This document shows positions 37,766-52,756 of a stretch of DNA of 64,000 bases, piece by piece. The notes under the pieces were generated by a model. That model made no database searches. It worked only from the letters and a program-made list of their open reading frames with translations, and was not told the DNA's origin. Position numbers and translations under genes: made by a program. The stretch covers positions 1,064-65,063 of the forward strand of contig CALWRK010000002.1 in the NCBI GenBank assembly GCA_944383935.1, in the 5' to 3' direction. This DNA comes from an uncultured Clostridia bacterium (GTDB lineage Bacteria > Bacillota > Clostridia > Christensenellales > UBA3700). Position 1 is the first letter of the stretch, and each line of letters begins with the position of its first letter.

Positions 37766-39496
37766 CTATTCTATCCTTTCAATCCCTTCGCTCATGCGCT
37801 TTACGCTGTTTATGCGGAAAACACAGAACACTATTATCGCAAACGCCGTCATTGCTCCCCATATGGCTGCGGACGCGGCGTATTTTTCCAGTCCCGCAAA
37901 GGGGATGCCGATGTAAAGCGCCAGCCCCACTATTGCCACGACGAGCGAAATCAGCATGGACATGAGCGTCTTGGACGAGGATTTGACCAGTTCCCGTATG
38001 TTGTTATAGATAAGTTTGGGCTGTTTGATATCTCTCCACACCGAAAATGTGTTTATTCCCATATTTATCAAGGTTACGGATATGAGCGCGCCGAAGAAGT
38101 CCACGACGTTGAACACGGATAGCGACAGGAGAACTATATCGTCCACCAATATGCAGATAAAGGAGAATATATCCGCAAGTATCAACTTGGATATTACTAT
38201 GTCCCTGCCCGACACGGGCATGAAGCGCACTATCTTAAAACTCTGCCCCTCTCGTGAAACGGCTATCGACGCCAAAAGATTGGTACCGCAGGTGAAGAGA
38301 ATAAGCAGCAGTAGCGAAGTGGCGCCGTTTATAACGGGATACATATCCTCCGTGCCCTCTGCCGCGCCCATGGGGAGCGCGATGTTTATTATCAGCAACA
38401 TTATGGGACCCAATATCAGCCCCGAAAGCGACTGGAATGCCAGCTGAGGTTCCCTGAGCAATGTAATAAAATCCTTTTTTATGAGTGCAAGCCTTACGCC
38501 GGCGCTTTTGATATGCCTTTCTTTTTCCTGCTGCTTTTTCTTACCGGTGCTCACCACCGCCCTTGTATCCGCCAAGGTGAAGAACACCCTGCTGCCGATA
38601 ATGGTGAGCGCGGCGCAGCCTATTATAACCGCAACGTAGATGAGAGAACTTTCCCACTCTCCGCACATCCCCGCAGCCGCGAAGTAGGACGGATAGACGT
38701 AACGGGTAAAGCCGCACATACTCTCCATGAGCGCGCCTACCATCTCAAAACTCACCTGACTGCCGTCTATTACTATCCCTGACATACCGTTTTGCAGGGC
38801 GAAATACCCGACATAGATGAGAGCGAAAAATGCGCCGTACGCCAGCATCATGATCACCGTCTTTACCGCCGAAGTGCGCTTAAAATAGGAGATTATCTTC
38901 ATGAGCGGAAAGGACAAGACCGCCATAATAAAGAGGGGCAGTACGGGAAGCGTGAGTCCCGCCACTATCATCATGATATAATATTCCGCAGTACCGGATA
39001 TCGCCGTCTGCGCCGTGGGAGTGACGATTCCCTGCGCAATCAGTTCCGCATACATGACCTCAGCCGACGCACTGCCCGCGGCGATCACTGCGCCGCCGAT
39101 CACAGACAAGACAACGCTTATGAGCGCGGTGGATATGTAGATGATGAGCATCCTGGATACAAACACCGCACTGCCGCCTATCGGCATGGACGATAACAGT
39201 TGTCTGTCCTTTGAAAACCATACGGTATTCACATAGGACGGCAGGAAAAATACCAAAATTATAAGCTGTATCGCCGTAAATACCAAATTGATAAGCTCGT
39301 CTGCAAAGCCTCCGAATAATACCGCCACCTGCGCCATGAAATATAGCATGACGAATATCAGGGCGAGAGGAATGGCAAACGCCACCAATAGCAGAACCAA
39401 AAGCCCTATCCTCTTTGCCATTTTACTCTTATCGCCCAAAAGCGACTGGAAGTTTAATTTTAGATCCAGCTTGAATACGGAAAGAAAATTCGTCAT
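37766..39496 (-). CDS. large polytopic ABC transporter permease (unknown substrate)
   Basis: 576 aa, hydrophobic almost throughout (more than 10 predicted TM segments). Its start overlaps the stop of the upstream ABC ATPase (translational coupling). Confidence 0.6.
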   Translation of the reverse strand: MTNFLSVFKLDLKLNFQSLLGDKSKMAKRIGLLVLLLVAFAIPLALIFVMLYFMAQVAVLFGGFADELINLVFTAIQLIILVFFLPSYVNTVWFSKDRQLLSSMPIGGSAVFVSRMLIIYISTALISVVLSVIGGAVIAAGSASAEVMYAELIAQGIVTPTAQTAISGTAEYYIMMIVAGLTLPVLPLFIMAVLSFPLMKIISYFKRTSAVKTVIMMLAYGAFFALIYVGYFALQNGMSGIVIDGSQVSFEMVGALMESMCGFTRYVYPSYFAAAGMCGEWESSLIYVAVIIGCAALTIIGSRVFFTLADTRAVVSTGKKKQQEKERHIKSAGVRLALIKKDFITLLREPQLAFQSLSGLILGPIMLLIINIALPMGAAEGTEDMYPVINGATSLLLLILFTCGTNLLASIAVSREGQSFKIVRFMPVSGRDIVISKLILADIFSFICILVDDIVLLSLSVFNVVDFFGALISVTLINMGINTFSVWRDIKQPKLIYNNIRELVKSSSKTLMSMLISLVVAIVGLALYIGIPFAGLEKYAASAAIWGAMTAFAIIVFCVFRINSVKRMSEGIERIE

Positions 39497-40251
39497 ACGC
39501 CCTCTTCTCCATCCGCAAGACTCCCTTCTCCCGTGACGGAAAGGAAGAAGTCTTCCAAGGACGCATCCTCATACACTTCCTTCAACTCCGAAGTGCTGAG
39601 AGATCTGATTATACTGCCGCGGTTGATTATGAGCACCCTGTCGCACAGCTTCTCCACCACTTCCAAAACGTGTGAGGAAAAAAATACGCAGTTGCCCTCT
39701 TCGCAGTGCTTTTTCATCAGCTGTTTAAGCATATGCGAAGAACGAGGATCCAGCCCCGTCATAGGCTCATCCAAAATCCACACCTTAGGTCTGTGCACAA
39801 GCGCGGCTATGATACATATCTTCTGTTTCATGCCGTGCGAATAGGTATTTATCTGCTTGGAAAGCGCGTCCGTCAATTCCAACATCTCAGCGAGTTCTTC
39901 TATCCTCGCTTTGCGCTCCGCCGCAGGTACTCGATACACGTTGCATACAAAGCCCAAGTAGTCGTAACCCGTGAGATTTTCATACGTCGCATGGTCATCG
40001 GAAACATAGCCTACGTTCATCTTTGCGTTTATGGGATCTCTCTTTAAGTCGTAGCCGCATATCTCCACGCTACCGCCGTCATACGGCTGAATGCCCGTAA
40101 TGCACTTAATGGTGGTGGACTTACCCGCTCCGTTCGGCCCCACAAAAGCCACTATCTCCCCTCCGTTGACCTCGAAATTTATGTCGGACACGGCGGTTGT
40201 TGCCTGTCCTTTGTATATCTTGGTCAGATTTTTGACTGAAATCATTGCCAT
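39493..40251 (-). CDS. ABC transporter ATP-binding protein
   Basis: Walker A GPNGAGKST, signature-like YSHGMKQK, Walker B VWILDEP. Confidence 0.88.
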   Translation of the reverse strand: MAMISVKNLTKIYKGQATTAVSDINFEVNGGEIVAFVGPNGAGKSTTIKCITGIQPYDGGSVEICGYDLKRDPINAKMNVGYVSDDHATYENLTGYDYLGFVCNVYRVPAAERKARIEELAEMLELTDALSKQINTYSHGMKQKICIIAALVHRPKVWILDEPMTGLDPRSSHMLKQLMKKHCEEGNCVFFSSHVLEVVEKLCDRVLIINRGSIIRSLSTSELKEVYEDASLEDFFLSVTGEGSLADGEEGV

Positions 40252-40254
40252 AAC

Positions 40255-41547
40255 TTACCCCTTGTTTCTCCTTATATTTTTTGCCCTTACAAGCATTTTT
40301 TCATATCCGTTGGACGAGGGCGTGTAGAACCGGCTTTCTTTGAGCTTATCAGGCAGATATTGCTGATCCACCCAACCGCCGTAGTCGTGCGGATATTTAT
40401 ATCCGCCCGCGTGCACTCCTGAGTAATGATCGTCCCTTAAATGCGGAGGAACGTTGTCGTCCTTCACCTGCTCCACCGCCTTGGAAACGCGCTCCATTGC
40501 CTGCACCACGGAGGGAGATTTGGACGCTTCGCACACATAGATAATCGCATTATAGAGGGGAATTTTCCCTTCAGGCATACCTATATGTTCATACGCCGTC
40601 ATCGCGGACACCGCGATAACAAGCGCCTGCGGGTCTGCCATGCCTACATCTTCTGACGAATGCACCACCACTCTCCTGGCTATCAACATGGGATCGCACC
40701 CCGCCTTAATCAGTCTCTCCGCCCAATAGAGGGCCGCGTCGCTGTCACTGCCGCGCAGCGACTTGCAGAAAGCGCTGAGCATATCATAATACATATTCTC
40801 GTCCACGCTCAAAGACTTCTTTTGAATGGACTGCTCCGCCGTCTTCAAATCTATATGCACGACGTTATCCGCTCCCGCCTGAGTTGTGAGAAACGCCAGT
40901 TCCAAAGCGTTGAGCGCTGTGCGAACATCTCCGTCGCTCGCCCAGATCAGATGCTCCATCGCGTCCTTATCCAGCTTTATCTTGTATTCGCCCAATCCGT
41001 TCTCCTTATCGGTAAGCGCATGGGATATGGCGTCTTGCATATCCTTTTTCTCCAACTTGTGAAACTCAAATATCCTGCATCTGGACACGATTGCCCTGGT
41101 CATGGCTATATACGGATTTTCCGTAGTGGAGCCTATAAAAATGATGTACCCCTCTTCTATTGCCGAAAGCACGCAATCGCTCTGCGCCTTGTTCCAGCGA
41201 TGACACTCGTCCAAAAGAAGATATGTCTTTACGCCGTCCGTCATTCTGCGCCTGCGGGCGTCGTCTATCACCTTCTTCGCGTCCGCAACTCCGCTGGACA
41301 CCGCGTTCAGCTTTACAAATGCACCGCCGGTAGTGTTTGCTATTATGTTGGCAAGAGTCGTCTTTCCGCACCCGGGAGGTCCGTAAAAAATACAGCTACC
41401 CAAAGTGTCCGTCTTTATCGCTCTGCGGAGCAATGTCCCCTCGCCCACAATGTGCTCTTGACCGTAAAAATCGTCCAACGTCGTAGGGCGCATTCTCTCC
41501 GCAAGCGGCTTGCCTTTATTCATATTCATGTCAAACAATGTCTGCAT
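40255..41547 (-). CDS. rarA: replication-associated recombination protein A (AAA+ MgsA/RarA)
   Basis: PLAERMRPTTLDDFYGQEHIVG, Walker A GPPGCGKTT, LLDECHRWNK and a C-terminal MgsA domain. Start set at ATG 41547 because the track start (TTG 41583) is the -35 box of a consensus promoter. Confidence 0.88.
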   Translation of the reverse strand: MQTLFDMNMNKGKPLAERMRPTTLDDFYGQEHIVGEGTLLRRAIKTDTLGSCIFYGPPGCGKTTLANIIANTTGGAFVKLNAVSSGVADAKKVIDDARRRRMTDGVKTYLLLDECHRWNKAQSDCVLSAIEEGYIIFIGSTTENPYIAMTRAIVSRCRIFEFHKLEKKDMQDAISHALTDKENGLGEYKIKLDKDAMEHLIWASDGDVRTALNALELAFLTTQAGADNVVHIDLKTAEQSIQKKSLSVDENMYYDMLSAFCKSLRGSDSDAALYWAERLIKAGCDPMLIARRVVVHSSEDVGMADPQALVIAVSAMTAYEHIGMPEGKIPLYNAIIYVCEASKSPSVVQAMERVSKAVEQVKDDNVPPHLRDDHYSGVHAGGYKYPHDYGGWVDQQYLPDKLKESRFYTPSSNGYEKMLVRAKNIRRNKG

Positions 41548-41553
41548 ATGCTT

Positions 41554-41583
41554 ATTATACAGGAAACGGCGCGAGCCTGTCAA
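41554..41583 (-). promoter_or_regulatory. perfect-consensus sigma-A promoter abutting the rarA ATG (leaderless configuration)
   Basis: Minus strand reads TTGACA-ggctcgcgccgtttcctg (18)-TATAAT-aagcat-ATG. An A/T-rich stretch lies upstream of the -35. Confidence 0.65.
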
Positions 41584-41704: not shown

Positions 41705-42151
41705 TTACATTACATAAGGAGCGTTAAAAGTGTAAGTTTCATCTTCCAAAACGACTATCAACTTATATTCAGGAGCCGCGTTCGCATATTCGGCTATGCT
41801 CACAATGGCATATCCCAAGCGGTTTTCGCACATCAAATCGTAATAGGTTGTGCGGTAATCAATCTGCTCGCTGCCCTTTATCTCAAAATATTTGCGCTCC
41901 CCGTTAAAAGTATCCAATATGGTAAAACCGTCTTTCCCTGTAATCACGTCCATGTCGCGCTCTATCGCAAAAGGGTATTCGTCGGAAAACTCCTCGCCGC
42001 AATATCCGGTTATACCGCTCTTATACTGCAAGGAGTAAAATCTCCAATCCTTTCCCTCTATGGTCGGAGAGTCTGCGCAGCTTGCTACCGAAACGGATAT
42101 CGCGACAATAACGATAAGCATCGCCGCAATTACGATCAACCTCTTTTTCAT
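41705..42151 (-). CDS. small lipoprotein of unknown function
   Basis: 148 aa. Signal peptide plus lipobox MKKRLIVIAAMLIVIVAISVSVAS-C. SD AAGGAG upstream. I recognise no family. Confidence 0.7.
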   Translation of the reverse strand: MKKRLIVIAAMLIVIVAISVSVASCADSPTIEGKDWRFYSLQYKSGITGYCGEEFSDEYPFAIERDMDVITGKDGFTILDTFNGERKYFEIKGSEQIDYRTTYYDLMCENRLGYAIVSIAEYANAAPEYKLIVVLEDETYTFNAPYVM

Positions 42152-42169: not shown

Positions 42170-42198
42170 AGTATATCATTCGTTTATGGCTGAGTCAA
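42170..42198 (-). promoter_or_regulatory. sigma-A promoter of the lipoprotein gene
   Basis: Minus strand reads TTGACT-17 nt-TATACT, 18 nt upstream of the ATG, with AAGGAG in between. Confidence 0.6.
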
Positions 42199-42257: not shown

Positions 42258-45200
42258 TCAGTTTTCTTTCCTCTTAAATATGAAAGTAATCTCATATCTT
42301 CCCTTGGCACGATCTATACTCACGGGAACGCCGGTGAGCATAACTCCGTTTTCAATTACGCAATCCCTATCTCCGTAATCGTATCTTACGCAAAACTCCG
42401 CTTCTTTATGCGTAAACGTTATAATAGGTCTTACATCCCGCGCTATCGGACGGCGGCATTCTATGGCTCCGTTTCTTATGCGAAAGCCGAGGTAATCTTC
42501 CAAATAGGTCTTGTAATACCATGCCGCGCTGCCCGTATACCAGCTCCATCCCGCTCTGCCCTTCATGTCCTTGTTGTAATATACGTCTGCGGCGATGACG
42601 TAAGGTTCCGCACAATACCTATCCTTACCGTCCCCCTCGCAAAGATATATAGGATTTAGTATTTTAGCGAGCTTTTGAGCATACTCTGCGTCCCCCGCCA
42701 TGCAAAATGCCTTAAACAGCCATATGGCTCCGTGCGTATACTGTCCCCCGTTCTCCCTCACCCCCTTGGGATATGCCGAAATATACCCGCAGTCAAAAGT
42801 CTTTTCAAACGGCGGCGCCAAAAGTCTGACGACTCCCGCATCTTCGTCTATCAGTTTTTTAGCGTGAGCCATGCAGGATTTTATCCGCTCCGTGTTCGCT
42901 ATTCCGGAAATAACCGCCCACGCCTGGGAGATAATATCCACTTTGCACGCTGGGGAATTATCTCTGCCCAGCCACACTCCTCCGTCAGTGAACGCACGGG
43001 CGTATCTGCCGTCGAAGTAGGCGTTGTTCACCGCGTCGGACAGTTCCGCAACCAAGCGGATGTAATCCCCCCGCATACCGACATCCATGAGCGGCAAGAT
43101 CTTTTTGATCACACACACGGCAAATTCCGTGAGCCACACGCTTTCTCCGCGCCCGCCCAAACCTATGCCGTTGAGAGCGTCGTTCCAATCTCCGCCGCCT
43201 ATTAAAAGAAGTCCGTGCTCTCCCCTGTTGGCGGCACTGTCCACCGCGCGCAAAATATGGTCTGATAACGTGCCTTTTTCTCCCGCATACACTCCCGTTT
43301 CCAGGCGCGATTCTTCCCCGTCTTTCAATATAGCCGAATGAAGATAGGGAATCTCTCTATCCAAAATTCCCTTATCGCCTGTATGCTCGATATACTCGGC
43401 TGTAACATATCCCAAAAACAACCTGTCATCCGTTATCCGTGTGCGCACTCCCAGACACGGACGATGCCACCAATGCATTACGTCGCCCTCCTCGTATTGA
43501 TGCGCCGCACACTCGACAATCATATCCGCGACATAGTCGGGGTCGGAATAGATATGCGCCAAACAATCTTGCAGCTGATCGCGAAACCCTATCGCTCCCC
43601 CTGCCTGATAATATCCGCACCTGCCGCTCAAACGAGAGGAATATACCTGATAAGGCAAGAGTTCCATGAGCAATTTTTCTTCCGCAGGAACGCCTTCAAA
43701 TCGTATTTTACATATGTTCTCAAACTTACGGAGCTGTTTTTTCCATTCATCATTCACATCATCGGCAGACATGGATAAAAGGGTATTTCCCTCTGCACCG
43801 ATTAAAAAATCCACTTCGGCGCACTCTCCCACGGGCAAGATAAGGCTCTTTACTATCTGCGCGCAGGGCACGTTGTATTTCCCCATTCCAACTTCTTCAT
43901 AATATATACTTCCGCTCTTAGCGCACATATAGCTATGAAAAACTTGGACCTTGCCGCCCTGCAAACATCTGACGAATGCACGCTTGCCCGTAACCAGGTT
44001 TTCCGCGGCAATGCACCCTCCTCTCTCGAATATATTCAATCCCCACGGGTCGTATATCCTGCCCAGCAGAAAATCCATGTCAAAGATAATATCCGCACTT
44101 TCCTTGCCGTGTACGTTTTTGATGAGCAGGCGATATACCCGGCACTCTCCGTTGCGGATAATGCCCGTCTGTAATAGATATCTGAACCCTTCCGCCATCC
44201 CCTCAAAACAGGTGAATCCCCTGCCGTGTTCGACATATCCGCCGGCTTGAATGCGATTGACCTGCGTCAAACTGTCATCCACCGCAAGATATATCCGCTC
44301 GGATGGCACATCTTCCGCCGGGTCGTTGTTCCATACGCTGAGTTTTTCTTCACAAGCGTTTTCGCCGAATGTGAACCCGCCGCCCATCTCCGTAACCACG
44401 CAACCGCCCTTTTCATCGGCAATAACGTTGGAATACGGCAGAGGAGTAGGCGAAGATATCACATAGTTTTCTCCTACCGTGAAATATCCATACCCGCTTT
44501 TTAACGCGATTTTCGGTTTATAGATATGCTCGCTTATGCCTTTTCTGAATTTTTTAACAGAGGCAAATATATGGATATCTTGGGAATCTTCTTCTATATT
44601 CTCCTCAAAATAATTATCAAGGCTCGGCTCGTAACCGTCTTTAATAACGTCTCCTATTGCACCGCGCGACACATCTTGCCCGTTGCCGTAACCCAGGCTG
44701 TTATCCTCGCTTTCTCTCCGGACATTTCCATAAAGCAAATCGGTAAAATACACTATAGGTCGGGGAAGTTCGGATTCTATCTGTAATATGTCTTTTATAT
44801 GCACTATATTTAACTTTTCAATATTGCCGGCACAAGTGGCATGGAGCACATAATCGCGCTTATGCGGATAATATCTGTCCGATTTATCTAAAACTACATA
44901 GAGTTTGCAGGACAATCCGCACAAATTCATATATAAAATTGCGCAAATCGCGCTCTCCAACAGATGGAAATCTCTTTCATAATCTATTACGAATATCTTG
45001 CCGAGGGAGGTTAAATTATATGGTTGTATTTTTTGTGCACTTTGAACATTATACACCATTACGGGGGCAAGTTCATCTATCAACTCGTTTACCGCACCGA
45101 ATGAGCGATATTTTGAAGTGCGCAAAGAATACATACTTGCACATCTTTCACAGTATGCGTAATAATTTTCTTCATCCATGTCGGCAATATACTTTTCCAG

Positions 45201-48200
45201 TTCCTCTTTGTCATTTGAAAAAGCCTTCAGAATATATACATCTTTACTCTCTCCGGGCGATATCGTGAGTTTGCATTTTATGGATATTATGGGATATAGC
45301 ACATCGTTAAATTCATAACCTGTACCTCTGTATTCCTTGGCGGCATTGCAATTATATCGCACATCTTTTGCCCCGTGCAATTTCACTGCGGCATAGAAAT
45401 CTTTTTCCTCTCCCCTTCCTCTCTTTTCCAGTATGACTCCGCTTTCCGTTCTTTGCGCGGATACGAACATATCCGAATATACGGGATGTGACAGATACTC
45501 TTCCTCCCTTGCCATGCTCAGGCGCTCTGAGTAGGATATATCGTACTCTTTCACTTTATCGGAAGAATTTTTCACTGTAAGTTTTCTCATTTCCCCTACC
45601 GCGCCCGTGAGCAAAAATACTTTCATTTTACAACTTCTGCTTATATTTTCATATTCTGCGCTTTCGGTATTATATGTGAATGTATATTTTTCCTCCTCTG
45701 ATTTTTGCGGGATATATGTGGGAGAATACTCATCCGCCCCATCCGTTACAATAAAGAACCCTCCGTCTGCCCTCTTAGGGTCTTTACGCCACCTGTTCAC
45801 CATATATCCGTTATAGATCGCATAGCCGCATCCGCTCTCCGTAAACGCCGCGGAATATTTATCTTCCGACAAGAGGGCGACTTTCAAATCTCCCGCGCCG
45901 TCCGACGTGCGGAAAAATGAAGACGCTGCCGAGTTTGCATATACAAAGTCCGCCTTGGGTTTTCTTGCGCTTACGGTGCGGGGAAGCCTCTCTTCCAGCA
46001 TAAGTTCTCCTCCGCGCATATAATCGTCGGACATAAACAAGCGGGAGATTACATTCCCTTTTAAGGCGTTTGTTATAGCGGCAAGCAACATTCCCTGATG
46101 ATGGGTCATGTAGCTGCAAACCAGCTTCCCGCCTGCGGAATAATCCACCGCTTCACAAAATCCGAACTTCCCGTAAACTCCGCGCTTTTTCAATTTTTTT
46201 AGATTGGCAGCCGCCCTATGAGGCTTATATTTCAGCATAAGTGCGGAAGAATAGGGAGATATGACACATCTGTTCTCTCCCGATTTCAAAGCCAGCTCCT
46301 CCAATCCCCACTGACCGTATCTGTAATTACCTCTGTCGTCAAAGGCATAATAGCCGCTCTCGCTTATTCCGAATACCCCATTACACGCCGATGCGGACAT
46401 AATAGAACACGCGCTTGCACACGAGTGCGTAAGCAGTGAATACGGCACGTCGGAAAAGAATATCTGCGGCATGAGATATTCAAACGCGGTCCCTGCCCAC
46501 GATACAAGCATATTTCCCCGCTCACCTATTATATCCCTGCGCAAATTCTCCCACGCATTTATATTACGACAAGAGGCGATATACGCCAGGATTCTCGCTT
46601 CCGACGCCAGCATATCGTAGTGCCCTTCATATATTCCGCTGTCCTTATTATAGCCAATATAAAATCTCCCGTTATGCTTATCTAGCAGCGCTTCGAGTTT
46701 CATTGCGTCCAGTATCCTGTCGATATCGGCAAAATCACAGCCGTGCCTTCGCAAAAACGCCCTTGCCGTAATCAGGCACGCCGCCAAATTCCCGTTATCC
46801 ACGCTGGATATGAATGCGGGGTGCTTGACCTCTCCGCTTGAAGAGTACCAATTATAAAAATTTCCTCTCCATGTCTTTAATTTTCCCAATCTTGCCACGT
46901 CCTCGTCTATCCTCTTCACAGCGGTTGCAATATCCGTGATTCCGCATTCCGCCGCGCAGACATGGGCGAGAACTCCCATTCCCAAATTTGTAGGCGAAGT
47001 CATATCCGCTATCCTGCCGCCCGTTTCAAAGGAATAATTGTCGGCTATAAGCGGAGTTTTCTCCCGCATATAGGAAAAATAAGAATATGTGTCCGTAGCT
47101 ACCCCTCTCAAAAATGCGTCTGAATTGCATTTATGCCCTTTTAAGCGGATATTCCCGACAGCCGTAAGACAGGCATATGCTATACCGACTGCCGCGTAGA
47201 CGAGCACCGCCGTGTGCATATATAGCGTACCGGCAAGTACGGCAAGCAGCAATATCCCCGGGAATATCGCAGCAAAGTGCGCGCTCAAAGGCTCGTGCAT
47301 CGTCCCCGCAAACGTGCGCCATTCAAGCAGGTTCTTGCGAAATATACATCTATATAGCGTTTTTATCACCACAATAATACTCGACGTCGCATAAAAAGGC
47401 AGCATGACTATGCCTTCCATCCCGCCTAATATCGCAAAGATGAACTCCGACAAGGCATATCTCAGCCTCACTCCGCTCGCAAGAGAATAGAGGGCAAAGC
47501 CCGCCTGTATGAGCGGCACCGCCAAAAGGCATATCCCGACGACCGCCGCGAGAGGCACGCTTCCCAATACAAGGGCTGCGATAAGTGCGGCAAGCATTGC
47601 GACGGGTGAGAACACCCTTATCGCATTTCTCAAAATTATATATCTGTAAAGCGGATGCACTCTGTTTGCGGAAAATGCCAGCGGCAACAGCAACAGATCT
47701 CCCCTATGCCAGCGCTCCGTGCGCGCCGCCTCCGCAGCAAAAGTGGGCGGAATGTCCTCATACACAAAATCCCCCGCTGCGGCGCAGTTCGTTAGCGCTC
47801 CCTCGGCTATATCGTGGCTGAGTACTTTGCCTTGCGGCAGTACGCCGCGCAATTTTTTATCGAACCTCTTCAAATTATATATACCTTTGCCGCAAAACAC
47901 GCTCTGTTTGCACAAATTGTAGTAAAAATCCGAATAACTGCAATACTCCTCCGTTCCGCTTTCCCTAAGATAGCGCAGTGAATATAGCGTCTTTACGGAC
48001 GACAAATTGTACCTGCATCCGAAAGAGAGTATGTCGTACTTGCTTGCCAAAGGATGAATAGCCGCACCCACCGCTCTCTTCACTCCGCCCACTCCCAACT
48101 TCGAATCGCTGTCCAAAAGTATGACAAATACGGGTGTGAACGGCGTGCTGCTTATATATTCGAATGCGGAGGAATCTCCCCTAAGCAGAAGGGAATTCAA

Positions 48201-49769
48201 GTCCTCTATCGCTCCGCGCTTGCGCTCCCTTCCGCACCATGTTCCGCCGCACTTCGTGCGCCTGCGGACCAATACGAATATGTCCTTTTCTTCTTCCGCT
48301 TCAGACAATATATCCAATACCGCCGCATCATCTTCCGAGCGCTCATTGTCTGCCTTTTTCAAATCCGCCAGCAGTACAAAGCCCGCGTTTTCGTCTTTAT
48401 TTGCACAGCGCAGCGCCCTGATATTGCACAAGGCATTTACGGCAGACTCTTTACTCGTGATAAGCTCGGACACCACGGTGAGCACCCTGCCTTGCTCGGG
48501 AATTTTGTCCAGCTTCAATCTGGGAACGGGTCGCGTAGGCAAAAAAGTGCCCAATGTGCGCACGATTAGATATTCCACAGGTATAAGCGCACCGAAAAAT
48601 GTTGCGAAAAACACGCCCGCCGACAATGCCGCAGATGGCATCAATACCGCCGCCACACAGGACAATGCCAAATCCAAGGCAAATACCGCGGCAAAAAAGA
48701 ATGCCGCTCTGTTCCTCCCTCCCGACGGCGGCAGATTCTTGCCTTTTAACAAGCGGTACAGCACTTTCCTGCTTTCAAAAAGCAATGTGCCGAAATGCAC
48801 TTCGCGTTTGCGCGCCTGTTCAAGCACTCTCTCCGCCACATTCCTTTCCGACATATTCGCATAGCGTGCGAACGCCCCCGTTGCGGTGAGATACAGTTTC
48901 TTGGATGTTTCATCCATATTGCGATAGGTTTCGTCGGAACGGTATATTTCATCTACGGGGGACATTTCCAGTAAAGTGGGCAAAGTAACGTCCGCAAGCG
49001 TCTTTAACGACTTAATCGCGCCTGCCAGCAAGAGGGCGGTATCCGCGATATACACGCCGAAAGTCACTTCCGCGCTCTCCCTCCCGGTTTCGATATCCTC
49101 TTCTCCCGTGAGTTTCCCCGACAACTTGCAGTAATAAGTATATCCCGGCAATGCGGAGTGCGATGGCTGAAAACTCTCGTCTTTTTCGGCAAAATATGCC
49201 GCCTTGTGCATTTTAACTATGCGCTTGCACATACGGGAGATATGTCTTAAAAGAGAGTATTCAAATGCCGCAGGCAGCGAAAATATCTCTTCTTCCGTAA
49301 GCGGAGCGTATTTATTGAACAGCTTTACGCCGCTTGTACATCTGTCTATATCCACCTCGCATCTATCCAAGGAGGTTAGCAGATGTGTGAGCGCTACCGC
49401 CCTTATCTTTCCCCTGCTTCTAGGGAGGAGATTGAGGGACAAAAGCCGCTTTTTCACGACGGAGGATAAGATAAAATTGCCGTTTTCATACAGCCATTTT
49501 TCACATTCGTTCAGCCTTTTCCCCTGTCTTACACTCTTTTTTACCAACCGAAATGCGCGCTTAATCTCGTGCAGAGTTTCATGCAGAGGGATTCCCACGC
49601 CCGCCCTGTCGCGTACGGTCATCGACTGGGCGAGAGTTACCACATTCAAATCCAAATCTTCTTCATCCGCGCGGGCGATGACCGCAAAATGTCTTCTGCG
49701 TCTGAGCGACATGAGCGCAGGAAGCATAAAGCCAAGTACCAGCGCGGCGATTATCAAATAATATACCAT
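42258..49769 (-). CDS. cyclic beta-1,2-glucan synthase-type multidomain enzyme (TM + GT84-like glycosyltransferase, cyclization domain, GH94-like phosphorylase)
   Basis: GT84-type motifs ILLDSDS, LSHDIAEG and ERWHRGD are flanked by TM helices. Cyclase-type blocks are TSPTNLG, FYNWY, SSVDNGNLAACL, WAGTAFEYLMPQ, GISESGYYAFD and MTHHQGM. GH94 blocks are GFRDQLQD, GGGDWNDALN and GGQYTHGAIW. Start set at ATG 49769 (GAGG 5 nt upstream); the track ORF starts at GTG 49799. Confidence 0.8.
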   Translation of the reverse strand: MVYYLIIAALVLGFMLPALMSLRRRRHFAVIARADEEDLDLNVVTLAQSMTVRDRAGVGIPLHETLHEIKRAFRLVKKSVRQGKRLNECEKWLYENGNFILSSVVKKRLLSLNLLPRSRGKIRAVALTHLLTSLDRCEVDIDRCTSGVKLFNKYAPLTEEEIFSLPAAFEYSLLRHISRMCKRIVKMHKAAYFAEKDESFQPSHSALPGYTYYCKLSGKLTGEEDIETGRESAEVTFGVYIADTALLLAGAIKSLKTLADVTLPTLLEMSPVDEIYRSDETYRNMDETSKKLYLTATGAFARYANMSERNVAERVLEQARKREVHFGTLLFESRKVLYRLLKGKNLPPSGGRNRAAFFFAAVFALDLALSCVAAVLMPSAALSAGVFFATFFGALIPVEYLIVRTLGTFLPTRPVPRLKLDKIPEQGRVLTVVSELITSKESAVNALCNIRALRCANKDENAGFVLLADLKKADNERSEDDAAVLDILSEAEEEKDIFVLVRRRTKCGGTWCGRERKRGAIEDLNSLLLRGDSSAFEYISSTPFTPVFVILLDSDSKLGVGGVKRAVGAAIHPLASKYDILSFGCRYNLSSVKTLYSLRYLRESGTEEYCSYSDFYYNLCKQSVFCGKGIYNLKRFDKKLRGVLPQGKVLSHDIAEGALTNCAAAGDFVYEDIPPTFAAEAARTERWHRGDLLLLPLAFSANRVHPLYRYIILRNAIRVFSPVAMLAALIAALVLGSVPLAAVVGICLLAVPLIQAGFALYSLASGVRLRYALSEFIFAILGGMEGIVMLPFYATSSIIVVIKTLYRCIFRKNLLEWRTFAGTMHEPLSAHFAAIFPGILLLAVLAGTLYMHTAVLVYAAVGIAYACLTAVGNIRLKGHKCNSDAFLRGVATDTYSYFSYMREKTPLIADNYSFETGGRIADMTSPTNLGMGVLAHVCAAECGITDIATAVKRIDEDVARLGKLKTWRGNFYNWYSSSGEVKHPAFISSVDNGNLAACLITARAFLRRHGCDFADIDRILDAMKLEALLDKHNGRFYIGYNKDSGIYEGHYDMLASEARILAYIASCRNINAWENLRRDIIGERGNMLVSWAGTAFEYLMPQIFFSDVPYSLLTHSCASACSIMSASACNGVFGISESGYYAFDDRGNYRYGQWGLEELALKSGENRCVISPYSSALMLKYKPHRAAANLKKLKKRGVYGKFGFCEAVDYSAGGKLVCSYMTHHQGMLLAAITNALKGNVISRLFMSDDYMRGGELMLEERLPRTVSARKPKADFVYANSAASSFFRTSDGAGDLKVALLSEDKYSAAFTESGCGYAIYNGYMVNRWRKDPKRADGGFFIVTDGADEYSPTYIPQKSEEEKYTFTYNTESAEYENISRSCKMKVFLLTGAVGEMRKLTVKNSSDKVKEYDISYSERLSMAREEEYLSHPVYSDMFVSAQRTESGVILEKRGRGEEKDFYAAVKLHGAKDVRYNCNAAKEYRGTGYEFNDVLYPIISIKCKLTISPGESKDVYILKAFSNDKEELEKYIADMDEENYYAYCERCASMYSLRTSKYRSFGAVNELIDELAPVMVYNVQSAQKIQPYNLTSLGKIFVIDYERDFHLLESAICAILYMNLCGLSCKLYVVLDKSDRYYPHKRDYVLHATCAGNIEKLNIVHIKDILQIESELPRPIVYFTDLLYGNVRRESEDNSLGYGNGQDVSRGAIGDVIKDGYEPSLDNYFEENIEEDSQDIHIFASVKKFRKGISEHIYKPKIALKSGYGYFTVGENYVISSPTPLPYSNVIADEKGGCVVTEMGGGFTFGENACEEKLSVWNNDPAEDVPSERIYLAVDDSLTQVNRIQAGGYVEHGRGFTCFEGMAEGFRYLLQTGIIRNGECRVYRLLIKNVHGKESADIIFDMDFLLGRIYDPWGLNIFERGGCIAAENLVTGKRAFVRCLQGGKVQVFHSYMCAKSGSIYYEEVGMGKYNVPCAQIVKSLILPVGECAEVDFLIGAEGNTLLSMSADDVNDEWKKQLRKFENICKIRFEGVPAEEKLLMELLPYQVYSSRLSGRCGYYQAGGAIGFRDQLQDCLAHIYSDPDYVADMIVECAAHQYEEGDVMHWWHRPCLGVRTRITDDRLFLGYVTAEYIEHTGDKGILDREIPYLHSAILKDGEESRLETGVYAGEKGTLSDHILRAVDSAANRGEHGLLLIGGGDWNDALNGIGLGGRGESVWLTEFAVCVIKKILPLMDVGMRGDYIRLVAELSDAVNNAYFDGRYARAFTDGGVWLGRDNSPACKVDIISQAWAVISGIANTERIKSCMAHAKKLIDEDAGVVRLLAPPFEKTFDCGYISAYPKGVRENGGQYTHGAIWLFKAFCMAGDAEYAQKLAKILNPIYLCEGDGKDRYCAEPYVIAADVYYNKDMKGRAGWSWYTGSAAWYYKTYLEDYLGFRIRNGAIECRRPIARDVRPIITFTHKEAEFCVRYDYGDRDCVIENGVMLTGVPVSIDRAKGRYEITFIFKRKEN

Positions 49770-49820
49770 AATTGCCTCAGAGCAATTATTGCCCCGCACG
49801 GCGCACTTATACCGATAAAT

Positions 49821-49842
49821 AAAAAAGGCGGCAACGCCGCCT
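49821..49842 (-). terminator. rho-independent terminator after the RNase P RNA
   Basis: Minus strand AGGCGGC-guu-GCCGCCU followed by UUUUUUAUUU. Confidence 0.8.
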
Positions 49843-49851
49843 ATACTAAAT

Positions 49852-50170
49852 CCCCAAATGATCCGTAAGCCGGATTCTGTTTACGATGACCATCTATCCA
49901 GGCGCGGCGTTACCGACGCGCTCAAGCGATTTTCCGACGCGGCAGGCTACCGCATAATGTCGTTTTCTCTTGCACCGAGTGGGGTTTACAGGGCATTCCG
50001 CGTTACCGCAGAATCGGTGAGCTCTTACCTCGCCTTTCCATCCTTACCCGTGAGGGCGGTCTATTTCTGTTGCACTTTCCTTTAAGTCGCCTTAACCGGT
50101 AATTAGCCGGCACTCTGCCTTGCGGTGTCCGGACTTTCCTCACATAATGTGCGGTCATCCGATCATTTGG
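49852..50170 (-). ncRNA. rnpB: RNase P RNA (bacterial type A, compact, ~320 nt)
   Basis: Minus strand contains the P4 halves GAGGAAAGUCCGGAC and ACAGAAUCCGGCUUA, plus GGUAAGAGCUCACC, GUAAACCCCACUCGGUGCAAG and GCCUGGAUAGAUGG blocks. The P1 helix CCAAAUGAUC/GAUCAUUUGG closes the molecule. Confidence 0.88.
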
Positions 50171-50176
50171 GCTTTC

Positions 50177-50205
50177 AATATAACACCAACGCCGTTAAAA
50201 GTCAA
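50177..50205 (-). promoter_or_regulatory. sigma-A promoter of rnpB overlapping the 3' end of sigK
   Basis: Minus strand reads TTGACT-17 nt-TATATT. The predicted TSS coincides with the first P1 nucleotide (about 50170). The -35 box lies in the last sigK codons. Confidence 0.6.
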
Positions 50206-50893
50206 GTCCGTTGCATTGAATATACTTCCTCAACTTCTCTATCGCCTTCTTTTCTATCCTGGATATGTACGAGCGCGATATACCGAACTTTTCCGCCACT
50301 TGCAACTGCGTGTGCGCGGGGGTATTGTCCAACCCGTATCTCATTTTGATAATCTCATATTCCCTTCCGTCCAAAGCGGCTTTGACCACCTCTTTCAGCT
50401 TTTCGCGCACAAGAGAGTTCTCTACCTCGTCTATCACGTCGGTGCTGTCTTCCAACAAGTCCATGAGGGTAACTTCGTTGCCGTCCTTATCGCTGCTGAC
50501 CGGTTCGAAGAGAGAACGGGTACCCTTGTATTTCTTGCTCGCGCGCAGCGTCATAAGTATCTCATTTTCTATACACTTACTGGCATATGTGGCAAACTGA
50601 GTCCCCCTGCCCGGTGAATATGTGTTTACCGCCTTTATCAATCCTATCGAGCCCACCGATATGAGTTCGTCGTTATCGTTGTATCCGGAGTATTTCTTTA
50701 CTATATGCACGACAAGGCGCATATTATGCCCCACTAGCTCATCTCTTGCGCTCTTATCGCCCTTCCACATTCGCTCTATCAGCTGTTTTTCCTTTTCTTC
50801 CGATAGCGGAAGAGGAAAACTGTTCTTATTCTTCACATAGCCCGTAAAGAAAAATATATTGCCCAATAGTGCAAAAAGTCCGCCTAAAAACAT
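50195..50893 (-). CDS. sigK: sporulation sigma factor SigK (pro-sigma-K, uninterrupted)
   Basis: The pro-sequence junction FFFTGYVKNKNSFPLPLSEEKEKQL parallels B. subtilis LVSYVKNNAFPQPLS. Regions 2-4 are conserved ([27 protein letters not shown]). Confidence 0.88.
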   Translation of the reverse strand: MFLGGLFALLGNIFFFTGYVKNKNSFPLPLSEEKEKQLIERMWKGDKSARDELVGHNMRLVVHIVKKYSGYNDNDELISVGSIGLIKAVNTYSPGRGTQFATYASKCIENEILMTLRASKKYKGTRSLFEPVSSDKDGNEVTLMDLLEDSTDVIDEVENSLVREKLKEVVKAALDGREYEIIKMRYGLDNTPAHTQLQVAEKFGISRSYISRIEKKAIEKLRKYIQCNGLDF

Positions 50894-51589: not shown

Positions 51590-51865
51590 TCAACAATCGC
51601 GCGGACACGCGGGCGAATTTACCCTTTCCCCCAACTCTATGAGAATGGCATCTTCGCCTATCTTGATTATGTTTTTCCACGGGACAAAGATACTCTCGTC
51701 TCCCGATATGTTCTTGAAAAACTTTTTTTCACCAGGCACGATTATCCCCACGACGTTTCCGCTGCAAGTCAATGCGATGTCCAAAATACGCCCCAGTTTC
51801 TTTCCGTCAGTGATGTTTACCACCTCTTTTTCCCTGAGTTCGCAAAATGTAAGATCGGATATCAT
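51590..51865 (-). CDS. ylmC: YlmC/YmxH-family sporulation protein (PRC barrel)
   Basis: 91 aa. CELREKEVVNITDGKKLGRILDI...VPWKNIIKIGEDAILIE is typical of YlmC/YmxH. Confidence 0.85.
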   Translation of the reverse strand: MISDLTFCELREKEVVNITDGKKLGRILDIALTCSGNVVGIIVPGEKKFFKNISGDESIFVPWKNIIKIGEDAILIELGERVNSPACPRDC

Positions 51866-52726: not shown

Positions 52727-52756
52727 TTTTATTCCCCGCTTATAATATCGGCATAC
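52727..52756 (-). promoter_or_regulatory. candidate forespore (sigma-F/G type) promoter upstream of sigG
   Basis: Minus strand reads GTATG-15 nt-GGGAATAAAA, resembling the sigma-F consensus GYATA-N15-GGnnAnAHTR. It lies about 50 nt upstream of the sigG ATG. Confidence 0.4.

Follow-up and report, generated by a model that had tools for sequence, protein, structure and literature searches.

In Proteobacteria, cyclic beta-1,2-glucans have been examined for their part in virulence or symbiosis and as osmoprotectants of the periplasm. The closest described system is the synthase for cyclic beta-1,2-glucan (Cgs, or ChvB) of Agrobacterium tumefaciens, beside which we place the Cgs of Brucella abortus. 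Outside the Proteobacteria, a Cgs (TiCGS) is carried by Thermoanaerobacter italicus, a member of the Bacillota. The A. tumefaciens enzyme (8rf0, 8rf9; PMC10901819) runs from an N-terminal domain through a transmembrane (TM) GT84 domain and a cyclization domain to a GH94 half with a Rossmann-like insert. Of TiCGS, only the isolated cyclization domain (TiCGSCy, GH189, 8wy1) was studied, and no link to sporulation was reported (PMC10834661); one review calls T. italicus Gram-negative (PMC11842490). Here we analyzed a gene of this type, cgs, in a 64,000-nucleotide (nt) stretch of contig CALWRK010000002.1 from an uncultured Clostridia bacterium, referred to below as the window. The encoded protein shows the same domain order as A. 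tumefaciens Cgs, and the gene is most likely transcribed, judging from conserved promoter motifs, from a sigma-F-type promoter in the forespore early in sporulation. An earlier sequence-only reading of this DNA had implied that a Cgs outside the Proteobacteria was a novelty; the biochemistry and structure of the TiCGS cyclization domain were already described in 2024 (PMC10834661), so that finding a Cgs in the Bacillota is no novelty by itself. Apparently new are the compact short form of the enzyme, the constancy of its gene position throughout an order-level lineage and, most of all, the conserved forespore-type promoter.

The open reading frame (ORF) is uninterrupted over positions 42258-49799 on the minus strand (-), which in the ORF listing corresponds to 2513 amino acids (aa) counted from an upstream GTG. 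The ATG at 49769 was taken as the real start, giving cgs at 42258-49769 (-) with 2,503 aa, because a GAGG Shine-Dalgarno sequence precedes it by 5 nt (49775-49778), M1 lines up with M1 of all close homologues, and the coordinates and length of 2,503 aa given earlier were reproduced. The clade homologues P0002-P0008 cover the window Cgs at 100%. A phmmer search against all Protein Data Bank (PDB) chains returned A. tumefaciens Cgs (8rf9/8rf0, cryo-EM) with E 2.9e-216 in three collinear pieces covering aa 244-2442, then TiCGSCy (8wy1, crystal structure) with E 1.4e-56 and GH94 cellobiose phosphorylases at about 1e-35. Pfam detected the catalytic domain of GH94 (E 3e-76), the supersandwich of GH94 and a Glycoamylase domain, and global pairwise alignment to Neorhizobium Cgs was collinear from end to end. 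The sequence-only reading had described a single intact Cgs-type ORF of about 2,500 codons, and the translation and the match to the Agrobacterium enzyme agreed with it. The motifs it had quoted, namely ILLDSDS, LSHDIAEG, ERWHRGD, TSPTNLG, FYNWY, SSVDNGNLAACL, WAGTAFEYLMPQ, GISESGYYAFD, MTHHQGM, GFRDQLQD, GGGDWNDALN and GGQYTHGAIW, were all found in the translation, far beyond chance. Its assignment of GT84, cyclase and GH94 modules in the Cgs order with intact catalytic blocks held up in the phmmer search, the alignment, the fold matches and the residue conservation, and the profile and structure searches placed the N-terminal half with GT84 and the C-terminus with GH94. NCBIfam holds no model for this protein and returned only sub-threshold similarity to MdoH. 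Membership of OpgH/MdoH was rejected, as the score was 19.4 bits against an equivalog cutoff of 419. Like the window protein, OpgH/MdoH is a membrane GT2-like glucosyltransferase that uses uridine diphosphate (UDP)-glucose, with weak local similarity at the ED/RW region (E 2e-4), but it lacks both the cyclase and the GH94 module.

The protein starts with a hydrophobic helix (49698-49769 (-), aa 1-24; Kyte-Doolittle 2.31), which is followed by RRRRH and then by an all-helical scaffold domain (48720-49697 (-), aa about 25-350), for which the AlphaFold2 (AF2) model was all-helical with 8rf9 as the best PDB fold. The membrane-embedded GT84 glycosyltransferase (47148-48710 (-)) has its catalytic core at aa about 415-700, and TM helices at aa 354-404 (two) and 715-874 (four) flank this core as the expected six-helix membrane domain. 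About six TM helices had been counted before; this number was right around GT84, whereas the total is seven hydrophobic helices, one of them the extra N-terminal helix. A GH189-type cyclization domain with an alpha/alpha-6 fold (45960-47117 (-), aa about 885-1270) comes next, followed by the GH94 phosphorylase half (42261-45902 (-), aa about 1290-2503), which consists of a supersandwich (1297-1513), a Rossmann-like part (about 1585-1685), an acidic linker (about 1682-1760) and the catalytic barrel (2039-2428). The AF2 model of aa 1-900 (predicted local distance difference test score, pLDDT, 67) had 8rf9 Cgs as its best fold match (E 2e-22), followed by BcsA, CesA and HAS. The model of aa 1290-1800 (pLDDT 68) also matched 8rf9 Cgs best (E 1e-21) and showed a supersandwich, a linker of helices and, where the Rossmann-like insert sits, a small alpha/beta subdomain; this subdomain, at about 1585-1685, was modeled with pLDDT of about 80-90. 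As in A. tumefaciens Cgs, the soluble domains were all predicted to be cytoplasmic. The supersandwich plus (alpha/alpha)6 fold is shared with the GH94 1,2-beta-oligoglucan phosphorylases (SOGP) of Listeria innocua and Lachnoclostridium phytofermentans and with cellobiose phosphorylases, as are the catalytic Asp and the phosphate site. However, unlike these soluble stand-alone catabolic phosphorylases, the window module forms one polypeptide with a synthase and a cyclase and contains a Rossmann-like insert. The acidic low-complexity linker (44490-44725 (-), aa about 1682-1760) is about 80 aa long, predicted to be disordered (pLDDT 23-45) and poorly conserved in the clade, and a local dip in G+C (0.44) coincides with part of the gene encoding it.

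The residues described as essential in two 2024 structural papers were mapped through the phmmer alignment and through an independent alignment with Neorhizobium Cgs, and their conservation was examined in 71 full-length Cgs sequences (51 Clostridia-type short forms and 20 long forms) from a genome scan that used one genome per species of the Genome Taxonomy Database (GTDB). All 19 mapped residues were present in the window Cgs, and 18 of the 19 columns were invariant in the 71 sequences. In the GT84 domain, the UDP-binding Asp (A. tumefaciens D527) corresponds to D469, the DxD residues D624/D626 to D553/D555, the primer Tyr of the IF1h loop Y694 to Y609 (invariant, 71/71), the catalytic base D739 to D672 in E671-D672, and the RW motif at R773 to R686-W687. 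The D672 column was the exception, with Asp in 51/71 sequences, and local misalignment is a possible cause. In the cyclase, A. tumefaciens S1101/D1104 correspond to S988/D991, and the acid/base E1356 of TiCGS corresponds to E1057 (PMC10834661), the supporting Glu E1400 to E1097, the nucleophile E1442 to E1137 and the His-His pair H1536/H1537 to H1223/H1224, all of the TiCGS positions being invariant (71/71). In the GH94 half, A. tumefaciens D2393 corresponds to D2064 (R2063-D2064), the catalytic acid D2528 to D2194 and the conserved His of the phosphate site to H2346, and all three were invariant. The likeness to A. tumefaciens Cgs thus extends to the UDP/DxD Asp residues, the catalytic base, the RW motif, the primer Tyr, the acidic residues of the cyclization domain and the GH94 catalytic Asp, and the likeness to TiCGS to the catalytic Glu and His-His residues. 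On this homology, the window protein is very probably a working cyclic glucan synthase.

The window Cgs is only about 29% identical to the A. tumefaciens enzyme and, at about 330 aa less than proteobacterial Cgs, belongs to a distinct, uncharacterized short form. The main deletion is a four-helix motif of about 120 aa in the cyclase domain, which in A. tumefaciens Cgs serves dimerization; this motif was absent from 51/51 short forms. The stretch bounded by window residues 1001 and 1030 measures 31 aa in the window Cgs and 29-44 aa across all 51 Clostridia-type sequences, in contrast with 146-214 aa in the 20 long forms, which came from Proteobacteria, Chloroflexota, Planctomycetota and one Desulfitobacteriaceae genome. 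Likewise, about 170 residues, forming additional alpha-helices, lie between two aligned blocks in TiCGS, as against about 10 in the window Cgs. Tanaka et al. described these additional alpha-helices as unique to CGSs among related enzymes (PMC10834661). However, in the Agrobacterium Cgs the four-helix motif forms a back-to-back dimer and does not take part in catalysis (Sedzicki et al., PMC10901819), and its absence was therefore counted as a variant and not as exclusion from Cgs. The window Cgs also differs from the A. tumefaciens enzyme in its extra N-terminal membrane helix and in the acidic disordered linker before the GH94 barrel. The extra helix was found in 41/51 short forms and 0/20 long forms, and the AF2 model placed it at residues 3-22 with low confidence. 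With its N-terminus outside the cell, it would keep the scaffold domain cytoplasmic, as in Agrobacterium. In a neighbor-joining (NJ) tree the short forms grouped separately from the long forms. A second short-form group, from Oscillospiraceae-like metagenome-assembled genomes (MAGs; loci L029, L030, L032, L034, L041, L043, L044, L052 and L053), had neither the four-helix motif nor the N-terminal helix, lay outside the sigK-rarA locus described below and sat nearer to the long forms in the tree. As a natural minimal Cgs with an extra anchor and no dimerization motif, the short form is of interest for structural work and for the enzymatic production of cyclic glucans.

Upstream of cgs on the same strand lies rnpB, encoding RNase P RNA class A (49850-50170 (-); Rfam RF00010, 266.6 bits). 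When the rnpB-cgs spacers of seven species were aligned, two conserved blocks stood out from otherwise free sequence, GTATAA and, 14-15 nt further on, G(G/T)CAATAATTGC, with the Shine-Dalgarno sequence and the ATG following the second block. In the window these blocks form a predicted sigma-F-type promoter, GTATA-N14-GGCAATAAT (49785-49812 (-)), with the -10 box ending 16 nt before the cgs ATG. Among the C. difficile sigma-F promoters with mapped transcription start sites, spoIIQ reads GTATA-N15-GTCAATAAT, CD1229 reads GTATT-N15-GTCAATAAT and sigG reads GTATA-N15-GTAAATAAT (Saujet 2013, Table S6); the common pattern of a GTATA -35 box, a 14-15-nt spacer and a G(T/G)(C/A)AATAAT -10 box is also that of cgs. 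A G upstream of the -10 box is the signature of sigma-F and an A downstream of it that of sigma-G (Saujet 2013), and the cgs motif has the upstream G and lacks the downstream A. Unlike the C. difficile promoters, the cgs match is known from sequence alone, in an uncultured organism, its -10 box is unusually near the start codon, and the 3' half of this box doubles as the 5' arm of a hairpin. If transcription begins about 7 nt past the -10 box, as it does in spoIIQ, the predicted leader is 9 nt long (GAGGCAAUU), or about 15 nt in the Christensenella-like subclade, and in each case this leader begins at the Shine-Dalgarno sequence. A sigma-A reading of the conserved boxes was rejected, as no TTGACA-like -35 was found in the rnpB-cgs spacer. 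A sigma-E or sigma-K reading was set aside, as CAATAAT does not fit CATA-type -10 boxes.

We then counted matches to the strict pattern GYWTA-N14-15-GKNRAYAMTW, with the expectation taken from shuffled sequence. The window contains 1 match on both strands, against 0.09 expected. A relaxed pattern gave 4 matches, of which only two are intergenic, 16 nt before cgs and 53 nt before sigG; the latter, GTATG-N15-GGGAATAAA (52728-52756 (-), one mismatch), served as a positive control within the window, as sigG is a textbook sigma-F target. Within 100 nt of the start codon, the -10 box was present in 33/49 Clostridia-type cgs loci and both boxes in 26/49, whereas random 100-nt windows of the same loci had the -10 box in 2.4% and both boxes in 0.2%; both boxes were found upstream of cgs in 0/19 non-Clostridia loci. 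The 70 loci together, 3.4 Mb read on both strands, held 24 pattern matches, 18 of them preceding cgs and 2 preceding sigG (loci L017 and L025). The possibility that the motif is part of rnpB, as a 3' processing site or terminator, was rejected because loci L046, L047 and L052 carry the motif before cgs with no RNase P RNA in the locus, which ties the motif to cgs and not to rnpB. These promoter data make it probable that cgs is a forespore gene. In a single case among the 24 (L015, 832-859 (+)), a sigma-F match also lies 61 nt upstream of a gene for a GalU/GtaB-type UTP-glucose-1-phosphate uridylyltransferase, an enzyme type that makes UDP-glucose, the Cgs substrate.

A hairpin with the arms AUAAUUGCU/GGCAAUUAU was predicted in the cgs leader (49768-49789 (-); dG -8.1, z -3.4). 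It extends from the 3' half of the -10 box, which its 5' arm overlaps, to the AUG, and its 3' arm covers part of GAGG, the first two bases of which are in the loop, together with the A and U of the AUG. Equivalent hairpin leaders were found in L004, L009, L017, L022, L025, L033 and L050, and the stem sequence varies among species while the pairing is kept (AAUCGCAU/GUGCGAUU, AUCGUAC/GUACGAU, AUCGCGC/GUGCGAU and AAUCUGCCUAUAU/AUAUAGGGGGAU). The support was given by z-scores for each sequence, which were at or below -1.9 in 12/20 leaders. Because the 5' arm precedes the predicted sigma-F start, the hairpin is expected to form only in RNA arriving from upstream by rnpB read-through, where both the Shine-Dalgarno sequence and the AUG would be buried in it. 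It is plausible that read-through RNA is thereby left untranslated while the forespore transcript stays open; if so, a hairpin that masks the Shine-Dalgarno sequence from inside the promoter would keep rnpB read-through RNA silent in vegetative cells.

The sequence-only reading had described cgs as inserted in the core genome, as if a proteobacterial-type Cgs had recently been gained by horizontal transfer into a housekeeping region. In its favor, the nearest characterized homologues are proteobacterial, at about 29% identity, and the neighbors of cgs are all core genes. The genome scan, however, contradicted it. About 50 Clostridia-type loci were returned, most of them from chicken, mouse or human gut MAGs labeled Christensenellaceae, Christensenella or Clostridia, with Candidatus Alloclostridium intestinigallinarum (Cgs 61% identity) as the closest match. 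The local order sigG-nrdR-sigK-rnpB-cgs-rarA-ABC recurs in about 40 Christensenellales-type genomes, and tblastn with the window neighbors recovered the longer order ftsA-ftsZ-spoIIGA-sigE-sigG-...-sigK-cgs-rarA-ABC-12TM-...-rpsB-tsf-pyrH in about 40 Clostridia-type loci. Across these syntenic loci, with cgs in the identical position, Cgs identity drops to about 28%, and it correlates with the identities of RarA, SigK, SigG, RpsB and PyrH (Spearman 0.83-0.94), so that Cgs divergence follows that of its neighbors. In addition, cgs lies immediately upstream of rarA in 3/3 contexts of RarA homologues of about 70% identity that were chosen without regard to cgs, and among these three contexts no lineage lacking cgs was found. 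The G+C content over cgs is ordinary and shows no compositional anomaly, the architecture is specific to the clade, and the short forms stand apart from the long forms in the NJ tree. Recent horizontal gain is therefore extremely improbable, and cgs is, on this comparative evidence, an ancient, vertically inherited part of the Christensenellales-type chromosomal region.

A relative of Cgs with another output, such as a linear beta-1,2-glucan, a different ring size or a mainly degradative or phosphorolytic activity, could result from loss of the four-helix motif together with divergence of the stretch that separates the supersandwich from the GH94 barrel: the motif is described as unique to CGSs, aa 1452-1758 were left unaligned by phmmer and about 80 aa of that region are predicted to be disordered. 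Loss of the motif could indeed change how the short form behaves. However, the motif mediates dimerization and not catalysis in Agrobacterium, the cyclization nucleophile, acid/base and His pair are invariant, the Rossmann-like subdomain is still predicted in a segment whose best fold match is Cgs, and synthesis is favored by the primer Tyr and the GT motifs, which makes a different output quite unlikely. The same enzyme and product could also serve a vegetative function in osmoadaptation, biofilm or host interaction, with cgs expressed from another promoter or by rnpB read-through and the sigma-F-like motif being non-functional or one of several inputs. In all studied cases cyclic glucans act as osmoprotectants and host-interaction factors (PMC10901819), and rnpB, which is highly expressed, lies directly 5' of cgs on the same strand. 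Several further points weigh against a forespore gene: the -10 box is just 16 nt from the ATG, which implies an unusually short leader; the -10 match is absent in 16/49 Clostridia-type loci and a recognizable -35 in 23/49; the promoter was called by motif matching only; sigF, in the spoIIA operon, is located outside the window; the host is known from metagenomes only, with spore formation read from its genes; and a literature search returned no paper linking cyclic beta-1,2-glucan with the forespore or sporulation, and none linking it with Christensenella. On the other side, a terminator-like hairpin follows rnpB (49826-49842 (-), terminator scan), in read-through RNA the conserved leader hairpin would hide both the Shine-Dalgarno sequence and the AUG, the rnpB-cgs spacer yielded no sigma-A-like promoter, and the motif is more than 100-fold over background and is common to sigG in the same genomes. 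A vegetative function is on balance unlikely, and the joint statement that cgs encodes a forespore-expressed cyclic glucan synthase is moderately favored by the homology and promoter data.

No NdvA/Cgt/ChvA-type glucan exporter was found in the 64-kb window, which also weighs against a forespore-expressed synthase; the earlier observation that no NdvA/ChvA-type fused ATP-binding cassette (ABC) exporter stands next to cgs was correct. In this respect the locus is unlike that of A. tumefaciens, as it is in its monoderm-lineage sporulating host and in its predicted forespore-type rather than vegetative promoter. The only ABC system in the window is a DrrA-type ATPase with a 12TM_1 permease. This pair is not of the NdvA/Cgt type and was not adopted as the glucan exporter, a role we regard as very unlikely; because it probably belongs to the sigma-A operon of rarA and is not found at this position in the cgs-bearing loci L018 and L039, it was not counted as a partner of cgs.

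For the forespore-expressed synthase, we infer the enzymatic product, the sigma-F dependence and the localization. Homology to the Agrobacterium enzyme suggests that the GT84 domain, which would dock beneath the membrane helices, autoglucosylates Tyr609 and, with UDP-glucose as donor, extends a beta-1,2-glucan at the cytoplasmic face. The chain would be bound, measured and trimmed with phosphate by the GH94 half, and the GH189-type domain, with E1137 as nucleophile and E1057 as acid/base, would transglycosylate the chain onto itself, releasing a ring of roughly 17-25 glucoses and regenerating the primer. Since the soluble domains are all predicted to be cytoplasmic, the ring would be released inside the cell that expresses cgs, and if sigma-F drives expression, that cell would be the forespore. 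Synthesis of the glucan would in that case take place within the developing spore, and the glucan would either stay in the spore core or, given an exporter, enter the space between the two forespore membranes, which may be regarded as the monoderm counterpart of the periplasm. It is a tentative proposal, possible but somewhat doubtful, that endospores throughout an order of gut Clostridia contain cyclic beta-1,2-glucan. If true, a forespore-expressed synthase would give cyclic beta-1,2-glucans a new cellular setting and would add a new compound class to spore biology beside dipicolinate and small acid-soluble proteins, and the ring could act in osmotic balance, dehydration, storage or host signaling on germination. 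Cyclic glucans are potent immune modulators in Brucella, and because the cgs hosts are Christensenellales-type gut bacteria, a spore-borne glucan could matter for host-microbe interaction.

The location of cgs between rnpB/sigK and rarA was confirmed by Rfam, NCBIfam and Pfam searches on the neighbors. Upstream, sigK (50195-50893 (-); NCBIfam SigK subfamily, 291 bits, above cutoff) is accompanied by nrdR, sigG, sigE, spoIIGA, ftsZ and ftsA, and elsewhere in the window lie spoIVB, the spoIIIA operon and genes for the dcw cluster, translation and isoprenoids. The presence of sigE, sigG, sigK, spoIIGA, spoIIIA and spoIVB supported the earlier view of the host as a spore-former within the Clostridia. 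The claim that cgs is the only clearly non-housekeeping gene did not stand, as the window also has spoIVB, spoIIIAA/AE, spoIIGA, sigE, sigG, a lipoprotein gene and the ABC pair. The small predicted lipoprotein gene (41705-42151 (-), 148 aa, signal peptide, lipobox VASC) lies between cgs and rarA, gave no Pfam or NCBIfam match and has no homologue in the related loci, where cgs abuts rarA, and is thus a species-specific addition. A separate sigma-A-like promoter, TTGACT-17-TATACT, precedes it at 42170-42198.

A perfect sigma-A consensus, TTGACA-18-TATAAT, was found at 41554-41583 (-), inside the longest rarA ORF, and the real start of rarA is therefore at about 41547, as on public contigs, which gives a gene at 40255-41547 (-) with 430 aa. 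The DrrA-type ABC ATPase gene (39493-40251 (-)) starts 3 nt after rarA and is followed by the 12TM_1 permease gene (PF09847; 37766-39496 (-), 576 aa), and the three genes probably form a sigma-A operon. The ABC ATPase/12TM_1 pair is syntenic across about 35 species, yet the permease is only 24-28% identical. A 91-aa ORF (51590-51865 (-)) lies between sigG and nrdR, a position that is held by a PRC-barrel YlmC/YmxH-type gene in the related contigs.

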